Origin: Candidatus Baldrarchaeum yapensis
GTDB taxonomy: Archaea; Asgardarchaeota; Baldrarchaeia; Baldrarchaeales; Baldrarchaeaceae
Length of the DNA: 32,000 bases
NCBI GenBank assembly: GCA_016840465.1
Contig: JAEOSH010000001.1
Coordinates: forward strand, 32,179-64,178
Direction of reading: 5' to 3'
In this document: in pieces, positions 11,644 to 21,062 of the stretch
Layout: each line of letters starts with the position of its first letter
Position numbering within the stretch: position 1 is the first letter of the stretch
Notes under the pieces: model-generated
Told to the model about the DNA's origin: nothing
Database searches by the model: none
Seen by the model: only the letters and a program-made list of their open reading frames with translations
Translations under genes and position numbers: made by a program

Positions 11644-13005
11644 ATGGCGGATCTTGAGGGAATTTGCAGAAAGATGATCTCCGAGGATAGACGCATTGAA
11701 GAGATCTTACAAAAGCTTGTCGATGAAATACTCTTTTACAAGAAGATCGACAGAGACCTCGCTGAGCGGCTAGCGGCCGCCGTAGTAAAAGAAGTCAAGA
11801 TGAGTCTTAAAATACCAGATGACGATAAAATCAGGAGAATAATTTATTATCCAGTTGCGGGAGTAACCGCCGGGCAACAGGGACTCGGGAGTAGAGGAGA
11901 GGGAGATTTCTTTGCTCATAGGAAAATCGCGGAGATAATCTCTTCAAGTGGGTTGCGTGCATTTCTTGATGTAAGAGCACACGACGATGCCGGTGCCGTT
12001 AATGTTGATGGTGCTGGACTTATAGTTGCATCAGTTGATGGAATACATTCCAGATTATCAGAGTATCCCTTCTTGGCTGGCTTTCACGCAACGAGAGCCG
12101 CACTTAGGGATGTATATGTGAAGGGGGCGCGCCCTGTCGGCATATTGATAGATATACACTTAGCGGATGATGCCGATATCGGGAAACTTTTCGACTTTAT
12201 TGCCGGTTGTACAACTGTTTCTAAGCTTGCAGGTATCCCGATAATCGGCGGAAGTACACTAAGAATAGGAGGAGATATGGTAATAGGTACTAGAATTTCG
12301 GGATGTGTTGTAGCCATAGGGGTTTCCGTGGTTCCAGGCTACCTCTTAAAACGCCAGAACATCAGGCCCGGGGATTTGATTATTTGCACAGAGGGTAGTG
12401 GTGGGGGTACCATAACAACAACGGCCATATTTTCTGGGAACTTTGATGTAATTTTAGAAACCTTGAACCTGCAGTTTATAAAGGCATGTGAGGCGATTTT
12501 CCGACCAAACATTATTACAAAAATACACGCTGCGAGTGACTGGACAAATGGTGGGCTCAGAGGCGATCTAAACGAAATTTGTAAAACAGTCGGCGTTGGA
12601 GTAGTTGTTGAGGAGGAAAAAGTCAGAAAACTAATGAACCCGAAGGTTCTGGAGATGCTTGACTCTTTAAATATCGACTATTTAGGCGTGAGCATGGATG
12701 CCCTTCTCCTTTTTGCACCACCCGAGAATGTGGACGAAATTATAAACGTTATTAGAAGCACAGGCGTTAAGGTGGATGTAATAGGCGAAGTTACCGAAAA
12801 TGCTGGGGAAAGTATATTGATAAAGAATGGGAAGAAGATTCCGTTAATGCCAAAATATAGAGAGTCTGCTTATACCGAAATAAAGAAAGTGGTTGGAGAA
12901 CTTGCACCACCAAATAAGGAAGAGATCTTCAAAAGAGCTGCAAGGGCCGCACAAGAGGCAATAGAAAAGGTAAAATTTGTAGAAAAACTGATAATGGAAA
13001 GATAA
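11644..13005 (+). CDS. AIR-synthase-related (PurM/HypE/SelD-like superfamily) protein with extra N- and C-terminal helical segments
   Basis: PurM-like N-domain motif: HDDAGAVNVDGAGLIVASVDGIHSRLSEYPFLAGFHATRAALRDVYVKGARP. C-domain motifs: PGDLIICTEGSGGG and ASDWTNGGLRGDL. The gene is divergent from the H4MPT operon. The start is uncertain (ATG 11644 or ATG 11674). Confidence 0.7.
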   Translation: MADLEGICRKMISEDRRIEEILQKLVDEILFYKKIDRDLAERLAAAVVKEVKMSLKIPDDDKIRRIIYYPVAGVTAGQQGLGSRGEGDFFAHRKIAEIISSSGLRAFLDVRAHDDAGAVNVDGAGLIVASVDGIHSRLSEYPFLAGFHATRAALRDVYVKGARPVGILIDIHLADDADIGKLFDFIAGCTTVSKLAGIPIIGGSTLRIGGDMVIGTRISGCVVAIGVSVVPGYLLKRQNIRPGDLIICTEGSGGGTITTTAIFSGNFDVILETLNLQFIKACEAIFRPNIITKIHAASDWTNGGLRGDLNEICKTVGVGVVVEEEKVRKLMNPKVLEMLDSLNIDYLGVSMDALLLFAPPENVDEIINVIRSTGVKVDVIGEVTENAGESILIKNGKKIPLMPKYRESAYTEIKKVVGELAPPNKEEIFKRAARAAQEAIEKVKFVEKLIMER

Positions 13006-13772: not shown

Positions 13773-15566
13773 TTAGATCTTGAAGTTTTTTACGAAATCT
13801 ACCATTTTTTCCGGCTCTTTTGGTCCTACTGCGACTTCCCATCCAGTTTTTGACGCTATATCACTGGCTAGATCTTTTAAGTCCTCCGAAACGATGAGTT
13901 TTCTATGCTTAACCAAATTTGCAATACCCGTGCGGTCTAAACACTGCGCTACTGCGTCTCCGCTGACCTCTCCGTCTTTAATTGCTTCTTCCAGCGTTTT
14001 ACCCTTAGTACCAAGGACCACAATCCATGCAGAGACATTTGCTTCGGCAAGCGGCACACGTAATGAATAATGCTCTTTGATATTGCTACTAGTTAGCACA
14101 ACGGGGGCATTCTCGCTCGGTGATTTGACCCCATATACTCCTTCTCTCACCCAGTATGACTTTCTAAGGAACTCAGGTATTCCAGCTGAGTCTCTTGGCC
14201 CTACGTGAACGTCCCATCCGGTTGCATCCTCTAATTCTCCCTTCAATCTTGCCGCAAGACCCGGTATTATTATTGCCCTATGCTTAACCACCTTTTCTAA
14301 ACCTGCCTCCTTCATTGCCTCCGCTATTGAGTCCGCAGTCATGGTTCCGCCTGCCACCGCAGACTCAACATTGATGCCTCCTGTGTCTACCACTAGTAAC
14401 CACGCATCGGCCTTTCCTTCCACGTCGTTTCTTACAAGGTGATACGTTATTGCGAAGTTGCAAGTCACAAGGACTGGTGACCATTCATTTGGATTTCCTA
14501 ACTTCTTAAGTCCTGGCTCAACCGCAGGGTGTATCCGTGGGTCGGTGTAAATGTCCTGCCTGAGGGTTAAAGGTGCAAGAAGGGACCATGTATCAAGCGT
14601 GTGTATAATTAAGATGTCAGCAAACCTCTCAATAAGCATTGAGCAGAGAATAGATTCCATGAAAGCAAGTTCGATTTTTTCCGCTTCAGATAATGACGCA
14701 CCATCTTTTCCTGCCCATACGACAGCTGGTATTCCTAGAAGTGGCCATCCGAGTTCTTTGTCGCCCTTCTCTATCGCCGCCCTTCTTATCATAGTGAATA
14801 TGTCAAGAGTGTCTGCTAATTGTCCTTCCCCAAAGAATGTTCCGGGATCAAGAACTATTTCCTTAATTCCAGCTTTCATGAACGCTCTTACAATGGATTT
14901 CAGCGTCGAAATGTCACCAGGGGCAGAAACCACGACGGGAACATTGTATTTCTGTGCTAGTTTACCGACTTCCTTCCAGTTATCTTTTGTTGCGGCATAA
15001 ATCAATGGTTTTCTCTCTTTAGCCACTTCAAGCCCTGCTTCTAGAACTTTTGGATCGAGACTGCAAAGTATTAATGGTAGTTGACTATTCTCTACAACTT
15101 TCCTTACGCATTCCGCAAATTTTGCAGGATTCCCACTTGTACAGCGTACTGCAATTGCATCGAGCCTGTAGACTTGTCCTACCCTTTCAATCTTGAACTC
15201 GCTAATTCTCTTCACTCTAGCTATGAGTTCATCCTCGGGCATTTCGTCATGAACGTCAATCGCAAAGACTGTAGGATTATAAAATGTTAATTCATGTCTG
15301 TACATCACTTCTTCTCCGCCAATTGTTACTGCATTATCCCCAACGCCTATTACCACTGGCCTCACTGGTGGTGTTAGAAGTTCTTCTAACTTCTTTCGCG
15401 CACTCTCATATTTAGGATCCGTAAATAATGGCTTGCATTGTTCAAGTTTGGCTTCTCTTTGTATTAATTTGTAAGCAAACGCCATACAACTATCATATCC
15501 ACATTCCTTACAATTAGTCCCTGGAAGCAATCTATAAACATCAAGCGGTTTCACCCTCTCGGACAT
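13773..15566 (-). CDS. cdhE: ACDS gamma subunit CdhE (large corrinoid/Fe-S subunit, AcsC homolog) with a duplicated C-terminal corrinoid-binding-like domain
   Basis: The N-terminal [4Fe-4S] motif is CKECGYDSCMAFAYKLIQREAKLEQC, followed by a TIM-barrel middle. The first Rossmann-like domain has LLVVDTGGINVESAVAGG...VKHRAIIIPG...TGWDVHVGP. A second collinear copy has WIVVLGTKGKTLEEAIKDG...VKHRKLIVSE...TGWEVAVGP. The ATG at 15566 is preceded by GAGGTG, which spans the cdhD stop. Confidence 0.85.
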   Translation of the reverse strand: MSERVKPLDVYRLLPGTNCKECGYDSCMAFAYKLIQREAKLEQCKPLFTDPKYESARKKLEELLTPPVRPVVIGVGDNAVTIGGEEVMYRHELTFYNPTVFAIDVHDEMPEDELIARVKRISEFKIERVGQVYRLDAIAVRCTSGNPAKFAECVRKVVENSQLPLILCSLDPKVLEAGLEVAKERKPLIYAATKDNWKEVGKLAQKYNVPVVVSAPGDISTLKSIVRAFMKAGIKEIVLDPGTFFGEGQLADTLDIFTMIRRAAIEKGDKELGWPLLGIPAVVWAGKDGASLSEAEKIELAFMESILCSMLIERFADILIIHTLDTWSLLAPLTLRQDIYTDPRIHPAVEPGLKKLGNPNEWSPVLVTCNFAITYHLVRNDVEGKADAWLLVVDTGGINVESAVAGGTMTADSIAEAMKEAGLEKVVKHRAIIIPGLAARLKGELEDATGWDVHVGPRDSAGIPEFLRKSYWVREGVYGVKSPSENAPVVLTSSNIKEHYSLRVPLAEANVSAWIVVLGTKGKTLEEAIKDGEVSGDAVAQCLDRTGIANLVKHRKLIVSEDLKDLASDIASKTGWEVAVGPKEPEKMVDFVKNFKI

Positions 15567-15576
15567 ATTGTACACC

Positions 15577-16773
15577 TCATACTTTCATTGATACCCAATT
15601 GTAGAACATGGACACTTCCGCTTTTTTGTCAGAGATGAGAAAGTCTCTTATAGTTTTCACTATTTTTACCGCTGCTGGGTGTAACATCATTAGGAGATCA
15701 CATCCTGCAAGCATAAGTCCTATCCCTGTCGTTGCTTCCCAGAGTGGACCACGATATTCTGGCGGGCCCCATTCAGGTGCTTTTTTCTGTGATAACCATG
15801 CTTCTCTTGCCGCCCATGCATTCGTTATACCACCACTTATAGGCATCTGTAGAAGTTCCTCGCCTTTAAGCGCTGCTAGGCGTATTCTCTCGAAAACGCT
15901 GAATGCATACTGATAACCATATCCGACTGCTGCTGATGTTGGATCCATGATTATTCGATCCTTCGGAAGACCTTCGCCCATCAGTCTGTTATTAAGTTCC
16001 TTGGCACCTGGGAAGTCTATGAAGCTAAGAGCTATCACATTATGTCCATATTCAACAGCCGCTCTTGCAATTCTAGCGTAATCATTTGCAAGCGATGCTG
16101 TGCTCAATGCGGTTCGTTCTCCTTCAATAACTTCCGCTGCTGCCTCTAGCACTAAAGGATCTTTCTTATTATCACCCGATCCACCTATTATTATTGGTAC
16201 ATCCTTAATTTGCTGGTATATCTCTTCAACAAGCTTAGCTGCTTCCTTTGGAGATTTATCTCCATATTCTGGGCTTGTGCTAATAAGATGAAGGGTTATA
16301 AGGTCCGGTTCGAACTCAAGTGCCTTCTTTGCCCAAGCTATTGGATCCTCCAGCACATCTTCGAAGTGTTGTCTAATCGGCTTTGGCAATCTAATCGGGT
16401 AATCAAATACATCCATCGATACTACTGGTTTGTTCTTCATGGGATAATCGAATCTATAGAATGGAGGAGCCTTTTCCCCGCCTATCTTAATGACCTTCTT
16501 GCGACTGCCTCCCTCGGATTTTGTGGCTCCTATCTGCACTTCAACTATTTCTCCGGGGAATTCTTCACGTGGAATTTCGAAAGGTACGGTTTCCAGCGTT
16601 AGTTCTTCTAAGCTAACGCCTGGTGCTGCGGGTGGTCTTGCTAATGTTGGTAATATATTTAAGACCAATTCTTCAGCCTCTATTTCGACATTTTCCAGCT
16701 CTAACTCTCCAAATTTCTCGAGTATTTCAAGTATCGTTTTGCCAAGTCTTCTAATTTCTTCCTCCCCGCTCAT
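15577..16773 (-). CDS. cdhD: ACDS delta subunit CdhD (small corrinoid subunit, AcsD homolog)
   Basis: 398 aa. TIM-barrel pattern: DLITLHLISTSP...PIIIGGSGD...ALSTASL...GHNVIALS...IIMDPTSAAVGYG. Its position between cdhC and cdhE supports the call. Confidence 0.85.
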   Translation of the reverse strand: MSGEEEIRRLGKTILEILEKFGELELENVEIEAEELVLNILPTLARPPAAPGVSLEELTLETVPFEIPREEFPGEIVEVQIGATKSEGGSRKKVIKIGGEKAPPFYRFDYPMKNKPVVSMDVFDYPIRLPKPIRQHFEDVLEDPIAWAKKALEFEPDLITLHLISTSPEYGDKSPKEAAKLVEEIYQQIKDVPIIIGGSGDNKKDPLVLEAAAEVIEGERTALSTASLANDYARIARAAVEYGHNVIALSFIDFPGAKELNNRLMGEGLPKDRIIMDPTSAAVGYGYQYAFSVFERIRLAALKGEELLQMPISGGITNAWAAREAWLSQKKAPEWGPPEYRGPLWEATTGIGLMLAGCDLLMMLHPAAVKIVKTIRDFLISDKKAEVSMFYNWVSMKV

Positions 16774-16779
16774 AACGAA

Positions 16780-18177
16780 TCACTCTTTCTTCTTCTTCTT
16801 TGGAGGAAGTTCTCTCCTGATGATCATCTTCTCAGCCGTTATCTTCACATTCTTAAATATTATTCTGAATCCGCCAGCAACCGGCACTCCTTCAACTGGA
16901 ACCATCGCTGGAACCATTTCTACTTCTTCTGGTACTTCTTCGGCTTTTTCTTCCATCTTTGCCCATCTTTCGACAACAGGGTGACCCTTCTGCTTCAGGA
17001 ACTCTCTCAATTCTTCAATGGTCATAGCATCCTTCTCGGTTGCTATCTTATCATAAAGTTCTGGCGGAATAGCGTCCTTTACACGTTCCTTTATGTGACT
17101 TGGCATCCACACGACCCTAGACCAGCCACCGTCAGCTTGGAAGAACTTTGGAGATCTCATGTAACCTATCGAAATACCAACGAAACCTTCTACCTGACGC
17201 CCTCCGCCAACTTCATTTGCTAACGCTGAGAACGTTAGTCCTATTACTGTTGGCCCTTTGAAGTTTCTGTCAACAATTCCTATTCCATCAACTTCGGGTA
17301 TGTAGAACGCTATTGCTTCGCAACAACCACATGTTGTGTGCGGATAACCGAACATACTATAAAGGTAAACCCGTTCGACTTCGCCAAGAGATTTTTCCCT
17401 GACCGCCTCGTTTGCTCCTGAATATTCTCCCCTTATAGGATCTAAACATTCTCCCTTCTCAACCCTGAAGTTCGGACCCTTCGGATCAATGCGTGCTGCC
17501 GCCCTTGCGTCAAGCCACGATATTGAGCCGCAAAGCGATAGTCTATCCGGTGTAATTATACAGACGTGCGAAGGAGCAAAAGACTGGCATAGAGTACAAC
17601 CGTAAAATTCCTCCACATCCTCATCGTGAAGGGCTAATGCTCTTGCATCTCTTTCCTCATAAATCTTTAATGCCTTATCAAACCATTCCTTGACCTTTTC
17701 CGGATCCGTTATGAAGGTTACCTGTATCTTTTCAATTATTGGAAACTCCGATTTAAAGAGTCGTATGAGCACCTTTCCAATGTAGTTAAAGGAGTTCAAT
17801 CCCTTCTTAAATGATGATCTGCTTAGCCTTAGCCAAATGTCGTAACGTTGGTTTAGATGCATGAATCCCTCAATGTAGTTGCAGAAGTAGTGAATTCTAC
17901 GCTCAAATACACCTTCGAGATCCTTTTCTAACTCTTTGCCTGCGACCTCGACAATAATTCCAAAGGGATATGATTTCCCTTCCTCGAGGTCCTTGATGTC
18001 GGGGCCAACTATTATTACTTTTCCGTCCTCTACTTCCTCAGGTGGCTTGACCAAGCAAAGTTCGAACTTTTCCTTTACATTAGGACCTCCAAACTCGACA
18101 TACATCTGTTCCTTTCTGATACGCTCACCTTCATATATTGGACCGACATCTACCGGGATGTCTTCAAACATTCCCAT
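16780..18177 (-). CDS. cdhC: ACDS beta subunit CdhC (acetyl-CoA synthase, A-cluster subunit)
   Basis: Supporting motifs are CTLCQSFAPSHVCIITPDR, LCG and HTTCGCCEAIAFY (the Cys-Gly-Cys of the A-cluster). It has a lysine-rich tail, PPKKKKKE. Confidence 0.9.
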   Translation of the reverse strand: MGMFEDIPVDVGPIYEGERIRKEQMYVEFGGPNVKEKFELCLVKPPEEVEDGKVIIVGPDIKDLEEGKSYPFGIIVEVAGKELEKDLEGVFERRIHYFCNYIEGFMHLNQRYDIWLRLSRSSFKKGLNSFNYIGKVLIRLFKSEFPIIEKIQVTFITDPEKVKEWFDKALKIYEERDARALALHDEDVEEFYGCTLCQSFAPSHVCIITPDRLSLCGSISWLDARAAARIDPKGPNFRVEKGECLDPIRGEYSGANEAVREKSLGEVERVYLYSMFGYPHTTCGCCEAIAFYIPEVDGIGIVDRNFKGPTVIGLTFSALANEVGGGRQVEGFVGISIGYMRSPKFFQADGGWSRVVWMPSHIKERVKDAIPPELYDKIATEKDAMTIEELREFLKQKGHPVVERWAKMEEKAEEVPEEVEMVPAMVPVEGVPVAGGFRIIFKNVKITAEKMIIRRELPPKKKKKE

Positions 18178-18180
18178 ACC

Positions 18181-18717
18181 TCATCCCCCCTTGAGGGAGG
18201 ATATCATTTTTTCAAGAGCCTCTTTCCAATCTTTTTCGGAGAGGTTGGGGAAGGACCATGTTGCGTTTGGTTGGTACTCCTTATCGAGGGATATCGTGAT
18301 CAACTTGGGTGCGAAATGTTTCAATGCGGATAACATCTGACTCTGTAGGTAGTAGGTGATGCCGAAGAATATAGCATGCGTGTATCCGCCATTTCCGTCG
18401 AATCCTTTCCACTCGGGATCCTTAAGCATGTTTGTTATGTTAATAAGAGGCATTGTTGCAACGGGTTTCACGCCATGTTCGAGGAGTATCTTTCTTGAGT
18501 GCGCCGTTGCAACCACCGGAATTCCAAGCTTTGCAAGCTCAACTACGTACTTCACAAGAGGTTCTCCATCGACTTTCTCGGTGACTATTCTAGCTCCAAC
18601 TATTAGTATTGGTCTCTTCGCCTTTTTCAGTATTTTAGCTACTGCTTCTCCTGATTTTAGGATACTTGCTGTTTTTGGTCCCGGGATATTACTAATCTGC
18701 CAGGGTTTCGCACTCAT
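18181..18717 (-). CDS. cdhB: ACDS epsilon subunit CdhB
   Basis: 178 aa. Supporting segments are MSAKPWQISNIPGPKTA...AKRPILIVGA and PVVATAH. The ATG overlaps the cdhA stop by 4 nt. The size and position are typical of CdhB. Confidence 0.85.
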   Translation of the reverse strand: MSAKPWQISNIPGPKTASILKSGEAVAKILKKAKRPILIVGARIVTEKVDGEPLVKYVVELAKLGIPVVATAHSRKILLEHGVKPVATMPLINITNMLKDPEWKGFDGNGGYTHAIFFGITYYLQSQMLSALKHFAPKLITISLDKEYQPNATWSFPNLSEKDWKEALEKMISSLKGG

Positions 18718-21062
18718 TTCGCCTTCCTCCTTATGAGTCTTGGTAGTAATGTCGGGTCGGGTATCTTCATGGGTTTCCAGCCCTTCTCCTTAAGAAACTC
18801 GAGAACTTCATCCTTCATTGTAATGGGGATATCTGCCTCCGTTCTGACGAACAGGTGCAGATCTTCGGGCAAGCCACCGAAGAACTTCTTGTGTAAGTCT
18901 ATATAGTGGGCAAGCTTTATAGCCCTTCCTTTTGTCGTGTCATTTGGCCTTATACATAACTTCGCTGTCATCACCATTGCCTCCTCCTTGCTCTCGGCAG
19001 GGTAGATTAGGTGCTCAGGAGCCGGACCCGCATACACCTTTTCGCCCGTTCTTGCGTCATACACGTACCAGTCCTCCTCTCTGTCCGGTCTACCAAGATA
19101 CGCCCTACGATACTTGCTCCCATGAGGACCAACTATTGCTGGAATTCCTAGTCTGTTGAAACCTGTAGCGATAGAGGCTGCCTTCTGGCTCATCGCACCC
19201 CAGGCAACACCAACTGCCCCCACTCTGTTGAGTATGTAGTCAGCAATTTCCTCGTAGTTTCCTCTCAGGTTTCTTCGTGCGAATATGCTTGCAATCTTTA
19301 TTGCGGCTCCCGATATGTGCGCATTTGCAACACATGAACCAACGTTAACGAGACAACCTGCGTCGAAGTCTCCAGGATACACCTCGTATAATCCCTTGCC
19401 CTCCTCGGTCAAGTAGCGTGCGATGTCCATTGCCTCACATCCGCTTGCTACAACTATATATCTTCTCCTAAGGAATTCTTCCGCCATTTCTGCAACTTCT
19501 CTATAGCTTCCTGGATAGTTGGGGCAACCAATATAAGCGACTACTCCCGGAATTTCTCCTAACACTATAGGAGCACCAACATTTCTTATCTCAGTGTCCT
19601 TAATCGGACCACGACCCGCTCGTATCTTGTATCTCTCCTTTTCGATCTCTGCCTCAGCGGCCTTTGTCATCAGCGTGAATATCGGGATACCCCTCGGGCA
19701 TGCACTTTCACATCTTCCACATCCGACACAAACTTCTGCCAACTCCGCTAACTTGCTGAGGTCGCCATTCTTGGCTGCTTGAACTGCTTCGTTTACTGGA
19801 TAGTCATTGGGGCATGCCCTTCTACAAGATTTGCAGTTTGTACACTTCTTGGCGAGTTCTATTAATTCCTCCTTGCTAGGTAGCGTTTTGTATTGTTTTC
19901 TAAGTGGTGCTATCTTTATTGCTGTTTTCACTACGAGTTCTGCCGCCTTGCGTGGATCCTCTATGAACACTCCTGGGACTCTAAAGTTCACAAGATCGTC
20001 GACTATTTCATCAATGGGATCATGTGTCCGGTCTGGTAACCCTTCACACTTCTTCTCATTAGTTGCTACCACCGGTGCATGTATTCTTTGCGCTTCTCTC
20101 ACAATATCTGCTCGAATACACTGCTCATCCACTATAATGACATCTGGGATTCCTGTTCTTATATATCTTAATTGTCTGCTGAGAGGACCTATTATTTTGG
20201 CACCGGAATAGTATCGTGTCATGTCATGCGCAGTGCAGCAAACTCCACATACCTCTACCTTATCATAGAGGTTGTGTTCCCTGAGATAATCGACGATCTC
20301 TACAGCAGGTGCAACATTATGGCCGATACACAAGATGACCGGCTTATTCCTATCTACAGTACCGAAACCTATTTCTACAAGTGGGGCGTCTGGGTCTCCC
20401 TTCGGGAAATTAAGCGCAACTATTTGGATTATGTCTGCGATCTCCATGGCTAAATGATCAAGCATACCAACATGGAGGGCCTTGCTTTCAAAGTCCAAGT
20501 AATTTCCTTCCTGACCAGTGTGTGTTGCACTTAATAGTTGTACCAATTGTTCCTCTACATACTTTAGTGCAACATCGAAATCGCCTATTGTTTTCGGTCT
20601 AAAACCACAAATTAGTCTTGTATGGGGAGCTTCTACTGCAATATCTCCTCCGAGGTCAACTGGGACATTTCTACCAAACTTCTCCACCAAATAGTGCCAT
20701 AAGTGTCGAGCATGACCTGCGTGGGCGGCGAGACCGATTAGGCACGCCAGTAGCACAATTCTACCCTGTTGAGTTCCTATATCGAGGCCACAAGCACCAC
20801 GTTTTCCTGCGGTGAGATCACATTTGCCATATGTACATAAGCAACATAAATCACAGAAGGGTGCATAGAAGGGCTTATATCTCTTTAATAATGTCATATC
20901 CCACGATCTGAGATCCGTGACTTTGGGGAAGGGTGTCGGCCCCATTGGTTCCCATTCTTCCTCTTCTTCTATCACCGCGCCAATTGCGACCTCAAGGCCC
21001 TTTATCACGCCAATAGTCGTCTGCACTTCGGTTGCTTTAAGACGCAAGGATTCTCCGCTCAA
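18714..21062 (-). CDS. cdhA: ACDS alpha subunit CdhA (Ni-Fe CO dehydrogenase component)
   Basis: 782 aa. N-terminal Cys cluster: FYAPFCDLCCLCTYGKCDL...RGACG. HAGHARH is present. The archaeal-type inserted 2x[4Fe-4S] motifs are CTNCKSCRRACP and CVGCGRCESACP, with C-cluster region motifs CGVCC and GSCVANAH. The TTG start at 21062 is preceded by GGTGGCGGAG and an in-frame TAA. Confidence 0.9.
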   Translation of the reverse strand: MSGESLRLKATEVQTTIGVIKGLEVAIGAVIEEEEEWEPMGPTPFPKVTDLRSWDMTLLKRYKPFYAPFCDLCCLCTYGKCDLTAGKRGACGLDIGTQQGRIVLLACLIGLAAHAGHARHLWHYLVEKFGRNVPVDLGGDIAVEAPHTRLICGFRPKTIGDFDVALKYVEEQLVQLLSATHTGQEGNYLDFESKALHVGMLDHLAMEIADIIQIVALNFPKGDPDAPLVEIGFGTVDRNKPVILCIGHNVAPAVEIVDYLREHNLYDKVEVCGVCCTAHDMTRYYSGAKIIGPLSRQLRYIRTGIPDVIIVDEQCIRADIVREAQRIHAPVVATNEKKCEGLPDRTHDPIDEIVDDLVNFRVPGVFIEDPRKAAELVVKTAIKIAPLRKQYKTLPSKEELIELAKKCTNCKSCRRACPNDYPVNEAVQAAKNGDLSKLAELAEVCVGCGRCESACPRGIPIFTLMTKAAEAEIEKERYKIRAGRGPIKDTEIRNVGAPIVLGEIPGVVAYIGCPNYPGSYREVAEMAEEFLRRRYIVVASGCEAMDIARYLTEEGKGLYEVYPGDFDAGCLVNVGSCVANAHISGAAIKIASIFARRNLRGNYEEIADYILNRVGAVGVAWGAMSQKAASIATGFNRLGIPAIVGPHGSKYRRAYLGRPDREEDWYVYDARTGEKVYAGPAPEHLIYPAESKEEAMVMTAKLCIRPNDTTKGRAIKLAHYIDLHKKFFGGLPEDLHLFVRTEADIPITMKDEVLEFLKEKGWKPMKIPDPTLLPRLIRRKAK

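Follow-up and report, generated by a model that had tools for sequence, protein, structure and literature searches.

We analyzed a 32,000-nucleotide stretch of the Candidatus Baldrarchaeum yapensis genome (the window) that codes for a complete set of ACDS subunits on its reverse strand. The genes cdhA, cdhB, cdhC, cdhD and cdhE adjoin one another, as they do in L009, L013, L014 and L015. The features are as follows.

18714..21062 (-): cdhA, alpha subunit (CODH), 782 aa, with PF03063 and ferredoxin domains
18181..18717 (-): cdhB, epsilon subunit, 178 aa, with PF02552
16780..18177 (-): cdhC, beta subunit (acetyl-CoA synthase), 465 aa, with PF03598 and PF19436
15577..16773 (-): cdhD, delta subunit (small CFeSP subunit), 398 aa, with PF03599 positions 1-226
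13773..15575 (-): cdhE, ACDS gamma subunit (CFeSP large subunit), terminal gene of the cdhABCDE operon
15429..15527 (-): N-terminal [4Fe-4S] domain of CdhE, residues 17-49, with Cys22, Cys25, Cys30 and Cys47 (PF04060, E 6e-15)
14547..15368 (-): central TIM-barrel domain of CdhE, residues ~70-343, from the N-terminal part of PF03599, the AF2 beta/alpha pattern and Foldseek
14151..14522 (-): canonical corrinoid-binding domain of CdhE (copy 1), residues 352-475, with 16 of 16 cofactor-site signature positions
13776..14150 (-): second corrinoid-binding domain of CdhE (copy 2, the tail), residues 476-600, with the predicted fold of copy 1 and 9 of 16 signature positions

The cdhE open reading frame codes for 600 aa from a GTG, or for 597 aa from an ATG at codon 4 (position 15566), which agrees with the length given in the original prediction, made from the sequence alone. 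The protein scores 663 bits against the NCBIfam equivalog NF003195 (cut-off 306). Foldseek matched its model to 4djd_C, 2ycl_A, 4c1n_G, 2h9a_A and 9fzy_F with E values of 1e-38 to 6e-46 and TM scores (by target) of 0.8-0.9; the barrel matched CFeSP large subunits and DHPS/MeTr barrels. Residues 1-475 constitute a full-length member of the CFeSP large subunit family (CdhE/AcsC/CfsA; 2H9A, 2YCL, 4DJD, 4C1N, 9FZY; NF003195), with the TIM barrel placed between the [4Fe-4S] motif and a B12 domain in which every contact residue is present, and the gene is found in an operon with cdhD and cdhC like those of other CdhE and AcsC proteins. Unlike these proteins, which are ~440-490 aa with one B12 domain, the CdhE of the window has a second, diverged copy of that domain appended. 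The single-domain lengths given in the original prediction hold as well: the solved CFeSP large subunits are 442-450 aa, the NCBIfam equivalog profile has 450 positions and the Methanosarcina acetivorans CdhE is modelled as residues 2-468.

Only one CdhE is encoded in the genome, and it is of this long form. Wherever it occurs, a long-form cdhE is the last gene of its cdh operon. As the sole CdhE of the genome, encoded within a complete cdhABCDE operon, the long form must serve ACDS itself. The genome also encodes an HgcAB-like protein, on a separate contig (C31).

The tail is a diverged, in-frame repeat of the corrinoid-binding domain, as had been predicted. Pfam placed PF03599 on residues 74-469 and found a second stretch of it in the tail. 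Searched alone, the tail matched positions 278-386 of PF03599 (E 9e-16) and positions 325-446 of the 450 in NF003195. A BLASTP comparison of copy 1 with the tail gave 30% identity over 112 aa (56% positives, E 1e-20). In 28 long-form homologues, the copies can be aligned nearly gap-free over 125 columns. The repeat unit is ~124 aa and the two units, residues 352-475 and 476-600, abut. There is no linker of ~15 aa between them as was first proposed; the stretch so read duplicates the beta-hairpin preceding copy 1. Likewise, the nucleotide limits first given for the copies are in frame, but they open 5-11 codons ahead of the peptides quoted with them. A phmmer search of PDB sequences with copy 1 plus the tail returned no separate significant stretch for the tail; it was recognized by the fold search and the profile searches only.

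The tail modelled by itself has a pLDDT of 93.5, and of 90-94 within the full-length model. Compared with the B12 domains of every solved CFeSP (4c1n, 2ycl, 2h9a, 4djd and 9fzy), the tail-only model gave TM scores of 0.91-0.95 with an rmsd of 1.0-1.4 Å. The predicted structure of residues 476-600 is therefore a CFeSP/HgcA-type corrinoid-domain fold, and the Rossmann-like CFeSP B12 fold expected from the sequence is borne out (TM 0.95). The only further significant match of the tail in the Foldseek search was a model of HgcA (mercury methylation; NF040863, NF043039), at a TM of 0.82. To our knowledge, no described family apart from CFeSP and HgcA uses this particular B12-domain fold. HgcA has a cap-helix Cys ligand, a transmembrane domain and a ferredoxin partner, whereas the tail has none of the three. 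AcsC and CdhE proteins at times carry other catalytic or partner domains behind the B12 domain, as in an AcsC-methyltransferase fusion (P0186, 719 aa), in which PF00809 follows PF03599. There the added module is a pterin-binding barrel, while in the window it is a second B12 domain.

To see how common the two-domain CdhE is, we searched 1.84e9 representative proteins and surveyed 400 genomes of the phylum. The architecture forms just one cluster at 50% identity in the protein set. In the phylum, the long form is encoded in 15 of the 263 genomes with a match: the genome of the window and three families only (Atabeyarchaeia, Jord-/Freyarchaeia; 14 of 14 genomes). These two results rule out the reading that the tail is ordinary in archaea, and uphold the original prediction on this point. 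The two domains are in frame in ~28 protein clusters from independent assemblies, including the closed chromosomes CP147779.1 and CP147780.1 and further single-contig genomes. No genome surveyed in the phylum encodes the tail as a separate gene. Two short matches that might have been stand-alone tail-like proteins, P0124 and P0167, start mid-profile and look like fragments of ordinary CdhE genes. We found no published description of the tail of the long-form CdhE, which offers a clean molecular marker of its lineage.

In a tree of the domains the tails form one clade (SH-aLRT 98), divided into sub-clades that parallel those of copy 1. Given 122 alignment columns and a long stem, the unconstrained tree does not settle where the tails belong. 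In the AU test, a single clade of tails and long-form copy 1 domains was not rejected (p 0.75), nor was a single long-form clade when the tail-free core was used (p 0.84). Together these comparisons indicate one ancestral duplication, the product of which was thereafter inherited along with the gene. That the tail was acquired from a foreign CdhE or HgcA was considered and is unsupported, the tails being monophyletic and the AU test favoring their grouping with the resident copy 1. Purifying selection acts on the tail, as judged from the coding sequences. Omega was taken from L015-L026, the least saturated and only usable pair, most others being saturated (dS >1 or undefined): it is ~0.10 in the tail, as against 0.04 in copy 1 and 0.07 in the barrel. 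In most pairs the tail has a dN 1.5-5 times as high as copy 1, and the pairwise identity of long forms falls from 0.72 in copy 1 to 0.59 in the tail.

We then compared the cofactor site of the tails with that of functional domains, using a signature of 16 class-based positions. It replaced a set of strictly identical "universal" positions, which numbered only eight and gave overlapping score ranges. Copy 1 scores 16, other CdhE and AcsC proteins 14.9-16, the tails 11.4 on average and the tail of the window 9. As the positions were picked for their conservation in functional domains, the tails could score only lower, and a few domains of the functional group go down to 9-10. HgcA, at 27% identity to CFeSP, still scores 15.4, an example of how widely the domain can diverge with its cofactor signature kept; the tail retains fewer positions.

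The conserved polar contacts to B12 in HgcA are Thr60, Thr66, Val91-N and Ala153-N (PMC7305189), two of the four being backbone amides. We took the contact list second-hand, from PMC7305189 and PMC4934906. By alignment the HgcA residues correspond to T371, T377, V403 and S463 of the window's CdhE, and T339, N341 and T345 of CfsA to T371, N373 and T377. CfsA Thr374, under the cobalt, corresponds to S405 in copy 1. Counts below are for 29 tails, with positions numbered by the copy 1 residue.

Position 371 is Thr in 17 tails, Ala in seven and Val in five, and position 377, at the phosphate, is Ser in 18, Asp in five, Thr in three, Glu in two and Ala in one. With Thr and Glu respectively, the tail of the window lacks the complete pair of Thr/Ser residues that bind DMB N3 and the nucleotide-loop phosphate (CfsA T339/T345, HgcA T60/T66). 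Position 405, under the cobalt, is Ser in 11, Thr in seven, Glu in six, Gln in four and Asp in one. In the cap helix of CdhE and AcsC a small polar residue lies under the cobalt (Thr374, Ser; Cys in HgcA) and is followed by small residues, A408 and then Gly or Ala (409). Of the 29 tails, 21 have Lys at 408 and 25 have Glu at 409; the tail of the window, with Glu at 405 and then Lys-Asp, departs from this pattern throughout. H432 is replaced by Lys in 18 tails. G459 is Val in 17, Leu in six, Ala in four and still Gly in two. In the ribose loop (462-463), S463 is deleted in 23 and Pro in five. Of the G-P-x-x-(S/A) loop, which gives an NH to the ribose (HgcA Ala153), the tail of the window keeps G-P and has Pro in place of Ser/Ala.

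Other positions are largely retained: N373 in 27 tails, D397 in 23, T398 in 25, G400 in all 29, P438 in 26 and a Ser or Thr at 377 in 21. Loss of the DTxG-type loop had been noted from the sequence of the window, and its tail does lack the Asp (LGTKG, thus G-T-K-G for D-T-x-G), but this loss is a feature of the window: across the 29 tails the loop has Asp in 23, Thr in 25 and Gly in all 29. A Lys aligned to I376, next to the phosphate position, is kept in all seven tails aligned and absent from copy 1. Many positions near-invariant in all functional domains are lost from the tail, among them a Thr that binds the phosphate, the ribose loop and the small cap-helix residues, and the signature positions lost differ between tail sub-lineages.

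We give somewhat better than even chances to the tail being a pseudo-B12 domain that holds no cobamide and has a role in structure or docking. The base protein is an ordinary CFeSP large subunit, built of the [4Fe-4S], TIM-barrel and cobamide-binding domains, and the whole cobamide domain would have been tandemly duplicated once, in the ancestor of a small Asgard clade. As all its cofactor-site residues are kept, copy 1 would hold the cobamide and, like the domain of known CFeSPs, shuttle methyl groups between methyl-H4MPT and the A-cluster. The tail keeps its fold, and purifying selection maintains it. It lacks a mosaic of positions conserved in all functional domains of the family. With these losses, which differ by sub-lineage, the tail is most likely free of cobamide, and B12 binding has probably been lost.

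The tail adjoins copy 1 directly, with no flexible linker, and we infer that it is a structural or docking module. It may occupy or shield a face of the barrel, steady the swinging copy 1 in one of its positions, or provide contacts within the multimeric ACDS scaffold. In M. acetivorans ACDS, CdhDE has been proposed as the architectural core of the complex (PMC13370988). That CoFeSP scaffold belongs to a complex of the window's type, and the CdhD of the window likewise has an N-terminal helical region. The M. acetivorans CdhE is canonical, with three domains, whereas that of the window has an extra B12 domain; the study describes no extra CdhE domain, and its phylogenetic survey treats ACS variants only (PMC13370988). 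Aligning CdhD from seven long-form and three short-form operons revealed no indel that tracks the tail, the short-form f28 having the long-form pattern, and our search for a docking partner of the tail found none. Class II LitR was considered as a parallel for a B12 domain without cofactor, but it retains the helical bundle only and is a poor analogue.

The strongest rival, though unlikely, is that the tail is a second working cobamide domain, giving two corrinoids per CdhE; one might be loading at the pterin site as the other is unloading at the A-cluster, or one might serve as a reserve. The modelled fold of the tail is indistinguishable from holo CFeSP B12 domains, purifying selection on it is strong (omega 0.10), and N373, D397-T398-x-G400 and P438 are kept in most tails. 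Also consistent with a second site are a segment resembling the cap helix, in which a Ser or Thr would lie beneath the cobalt (18 of 29), the Ser or Thr at the phosphate position (21 of 29) and the Lys aligned to I376, which could favor a phosphate. However, positions that CdhE shares even with HgcA, at 27% identity, have been lost or deleted: Val, Leu or Ala replaces G459 in 27 of 29 tails, the 462-463 loop is deleted (23) or has Pro (5), A408 and G409 have become Lys and Glu, and H432 has become Lys in 18. The tail of the window, at 9/16, has acidic residues at two contact positions. Such lineage-specific losses are the pattern of lifted constraint rather than of a re-tuned site.

Also improbable, in our view, is that the tail works as a second site for cobamide, or houses some other cofactor, making the CFeSP of these Asgard acetogens a two-carrier system with methyl groups relayed or buffered between the tandem B12 domains. 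We know of no two-carrier corrinoid methyl-transfer system. The original prediction did not choose between a second cobamide site and a degenerate module for docking or regulation; the evidence leans toward the latter without settling the matter.

We are more doubtful that the tail was re-purposed for another nucleotide-like or tetrapyrrole ligand, for example, or for a peptide tether of CdhC or CdhA, which would make it a sensor or regulator of ACDS. It keeps the Rossmann-like fold and the loop residues G400, N373 and T398, and the conserved Lys aligned to I376 and a K/E-rich cap-helix segment are specific to it and absent from copy 1. Archaeal ACDS is moreover joined by disordered terminal tethers on the CoFeSP scaffold (PMC13370988). 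Against this, nothing points positively to a ligand or partner, CdhD has no co-varying feature in the ten operons aligned, and the Foldseek neighbors of the tail are CFeSP and HgcA only.

That the tail is an artefact of assembly duplication, or of a frameshift fusing cdhE to a downstream gene, is conceivable a priori for a MAG of 100 contigs, but we set it aside, as the original prediction did for an assembly duplication, since the copies are just 30% identical, the tail is in frame in ~28 independent clusters and in closed genomes, selection acts on its codons, and it is never a separate gene in the genomes surveyed.

The Wood-Ljungdahl pathway uses CFeSP as its methyl carrier, and all mechanistic models of CFeSP center on its single swinging B12 domain. 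Here we find a conserved lineage, comprising Atabeyarchaeia, Jord-/Freyarchaeia and the family of the window, whose sole CdhE has that domain in a second copy maintained by selection. In wetland soil, Atabeyarchaeia and Freyarchaeia transcribe their CODH/ACS genes (PMC11291895). As first suggested from the sequence, the extra domain might change the mechanics of methyl shuttling in this ACDS. Should the tail bind cobamide, the stoichiometry and choreography of methyl transfer would differ in these Asgard acetogens. If, as we favor, it is without cobamide, it would be a natural case of a B12 domain converted to use in structure or docking, and would provide a handle on the organization of the archaeal CoFeSP scaffold.

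The window holds a complete acetyl-CoA synthase (ACDS) operon, cdhA-cdhB-cdhC-cdhD-cdhE, with Ftr encoded upstream and methanopterin-biosynthesis genes downstream.

18714-21062, minus strand: cdhA
18181-18717, minus strand: cdhB
16780-18177, minus strand: cdhC
15577-16773, minus strand: cdhD
13773-15575, minus strand: cdhE, large subunit of the corrinoid Fe-S protein (CFeSP)

The cdhE ORF codes for 600 amino acids from a GTG start; beginning instead at an ATG in codon 4 gives 597, the length of the recorded protein. Pfam places the [4Fe-4S] motif (PF04060) at residues 17-49 and PF03599 at residues 74-469 plus a second stretch; the last 116 residues alone match PF03599 positions 278-386 (E 9e-16). 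NF003195, the NCBIfam equivalog for the ACDS gamma subunit (450 positions, cut-off 306 bits), matches residues 8-473 at 663 bits, and the tail (residues 476-600), taken alone, also matches it, at profile positions 325-446. On every feature tested residues 1-475 belong to the CdhE/AcsC family, whereas the whole architecture, with two corrinoid-binding (B12) domains (hereafter the long form), departs from the family's. No second CdhE was found anywhere in the genome (2.27 Mb, 96% complete). A 453-amino acid AIR-synthase-related (PurM-like) gene lies a few kb from the operon (11644-13005, plus strand), and one is also near the long-form cdh operon at loci of families f13 and f14 of the phylum (L013, L014, L015).

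As originally predicted, the tail is a second, diverged copy of the canonical B12 domain (copy 1). The two share 30% identity and 56% positives over 112 residues (BLASTP E 1e-20), consistent with the PF03599 and NF003195 matches of the tail, and align nearly without gaps across 125 columns in 28 long-form homologues. The duplicated unit, residues 352-475, includes the beta-hairpin ahead of the Rossmann core, so the copies abut; the 15-residue linker proposed between them is part of the repeat itself. In an AlphaFold2 model of the full-length chain (alignment of 54 sequences, mean pLDDT 89.7) the tail has pLDDT 90-94, and its strands and helices follow one another as in copy 1, down to a short helix where the cap helix would be. 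Modeled on its own (pLDDT 93.5, pTM 0.86), the tail matches the B12 domain in each of the five solved CFeSP large subunits with TM-scores of 0.91-0.95 and rmsd of 1.0-1.4 Å, as expected of a Rossmann-like fold. Beyond CFeSP, its sole structural match below E 1e-3 was an HgcA model. As far as sequence allows, an artefactual tail was excluded.

In a word-indexed search, about 28 clusters with lengths of 562-597 amino acids spanned the whole window CdhE at 49-57% identity; those of 562-563 have a shortened N-terminus. Their source names are Ca. Atabeyarchaeum and Njord-, Frey- and Jordarchaeota or -ales. The next-best matches were single-domain proteins of ~470-495 amino acids, mainly from Bathyarchaeia. 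We also searched 1.84 billion 50%-identity representatives exhaustively with the tail alone (HMMER, 194 hits up to E 1e-3). Only P0003, a protein of 589 amino acids with two matching stretches (E 3e-39), had a match at the tail position; the remaining hits were to the single domain of ordinary CdhE/AcsC, to HgcA-type proteins, or to fragments. Within the window's phylum, 263 of 400 genomes gave a match, with two tandem matches in one frame of 589-623 amino acids confined to the window's genome and families f4 (3/3), f13 (5/5) and f14 (6/6). The tail is thus not ordinary among archaeal CdhE; had it been, this would have counted against the original prediction. Coordinates identify two long-form genomes as closed Atabeyarchaeia chromosomes (G002, CP147780.1; G004, CP147779.1), and f13 and f14 correspond to Jord-/Freyarchaeia long-form proteins, which makes the phylum Asgard. 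At all long-form loci examined the cdh(AB)CDE operon ends with cdhE. In Atabeyarchaeia and Freyarchaeia, CODH/ACS ranks with the top-transcribed metabolic functions in situ (PMC11291895); CdhE architecture is not mentioned in that paper. P0003 (G114, contig C2, 501,704 bp) is labeled 'Nitrososphaerota archaeon' at NCBI, but its genome is placed in f13 and a CdhE core identical to its own falls with those of Jordarchaeales; the NCBI label is probably mistaken.

A domain tree (92 rows, 122 columns) unites the tails in a single clade (SH-aLRT 98), with three sub-clades, plus the window, mirroring those of copy 1 on branches 2-3 times as long. A clade of tails and long-form copy 1 was not rejected (AU test, p 0.75) and had the higher likelihood, though the unconstrained tree does not fix where the tail clade attaches. 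When the tail is left out (core, residues 20-472), the long forms belong to an Asgard-type CdhE clade with support of 97, which also holds short, single-domain forms from f15, f17, f19, f20 and f28. Long-form monophyly was not rejected there either (p 0.84), again with higher likelihood. The simplest history is a single tandem duplication in the ancestor of the long-form lineage, then inherited with the gene. Other genomes of the window's own order encode CdhEs of 481-484 amino acids (L005, G006:C6; L006, G005:C215; L007, G007:C2). That of G006, the one placed in the core tree, groups with Bathyarchaeia/Thermoprotei-type sequences (support 100), away from the window CdhE. At least once, therefore, the cdh operon has passed from one lineage to another or been replaced.

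The tail is under purifying selection 2-3 times more relaxed than that on copy 1. With synonymous sites saturated in most pairs, omega comes from the least diverged pair only (L015-L026, dS 0.7-1.0), which gives 0.10 in the tail compared with 0.04 in copy 1 and 0.07 in the barrel. This fits the lower pairwise identity among long forms of the tail (0.59) versus copy 1 (0.72); between the window and other long forms the values are 36% and 55%.

The polar B12 contacts that HgcA has in common with crystal structures of CFeSP are listed in PMC7305189: in HgcA, Thr60 contacts DMB N3, Thr66 and Val91-N the phosphate, and Ala153-N the ribose. Beneath the cobalt on the cap helix lies Cys93 in HgcA and Thr374 in CfsA, the latter 3.2-4.6 Å from the metal (PMC4934906). 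Aligning the window CdhE to 2H9A and 4DJD equates CfsA T339, N341, T345 and T374 with T371, N373, T377 and S405. Alignment with the genome's HgcAB-like protein, going by motif spacing, suggests that HgcA Val91 and Ala153 correspond to V403 and S463. In copy 1 the contact positions are invariant in 29/29 long-form rows, or at S405 nearly so (S27/A2). The 29 tails instead vary at T371 (T17/A7/V5), T377 (S18/D5/T3/E2/A1), S405 (S11/T7/E6/Q4/D1) and G459 (V17/L6/A4/G2). A408 is Lys in 21, G409 Glu in 25 and H432 Lys in 18, and at position 463 the residue is missing from 23 and Pro in five.

A second cobamide site in the tail appears unlikely. The fold-type anchors are largely kept in the tails (N373 in 27, T398 in 25, G400 in 29, P438 in 26, W454 in 29), but a 16-position signature averages 11.4 in tails (range 9-14; the window's, 9). 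It averages 16.0 in long-form copy 1 and in 92 near relatives, 14.9 in 120 diverse CdhE/AcsC and 15.4 in 22 domains, mostly of HgcA type, whose cap position is Cys. The comparison is tempered by the choice of the signature on functional domains, by two contacts being made through backbone atoms, and by two of the 120 diverse domains scoring 9-10. The signature positions lost vary by sub-lineage, a pattern of lifted constraint rather than of a re-tuned site. Binding of another ligand or partner by the tail is more doubtful still. On balance, the degraded site leads us to lean toward a tail that holds no cobamide and may act as a structural or docking module. A co-varying indel sought in CdhD was not found.

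HgcA is the only other known family based on the same B12 domain as CFeSP. The HgcAB-like fusion of the window's genome (383 amino acids; contig C31, L003:772-1923, minus strand) combines a corrinoid domain of the CFeSP type, whose cap helix bears Cys (GINVWCASAGG), with transmembrane helices and, at the C-terminus, a 2x[4Fe-4S] ferredoxin. The start codon of the fusion overlaps the stop codon of a gene for a class-I SAM methyltransferase (L003:1920-2612, minus strand), notable because the title of a 2024 paper gives SAM as methyl donor for HgcAB (PMC11588087). In the related proteins P0161 and P0258, and in 577-amino acid frames of f31 genomes, the methyltransferase is fused to the corrinoid domain. 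Three full-length CdhE/AcsC-like proteins from the tail search (P0138, P0148, P0150; 449-478 amino acids) have Cys at the cap-helix position, which is Thr or Ser in CFeSP and the cobalt-ligating Cys in HgcA; P0150 clusters with Bathyarchaeia-type CdhE in trees. Unlike the window CdhE, neither the SAM-methyltransferase fusions to an HgcA-like domain among the hits nor P0186 (719 amino acids), a CFeSP large subunit with a C-terminal pterin-binding MeTr-like barrel (PF00809), has tandem B12 domains. A 2026 preprint on the M. acetivorans ACDS structure describes CdhE as a three-domain protein, its variant survey covering the synthase subunit only (PMC13370988), and our full-text literature search turned up no relevant account of a tandem or second corrinoid domain.

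The sole CdhE of this genome, encoded in a standard ACDS operon, is thus a canonical three-domain CFeSP large subunit with an extra B12-fold domain under selection. By established CFeSP biochemistry, copy 1 would carry the cobamide, swinging from the methyl donor site to the A-cluster and back. The long-form CdhE is a clear-cut feature with a narrow distribution, and it bears on the workings of the methyl carrier in an Asgard acetogen.
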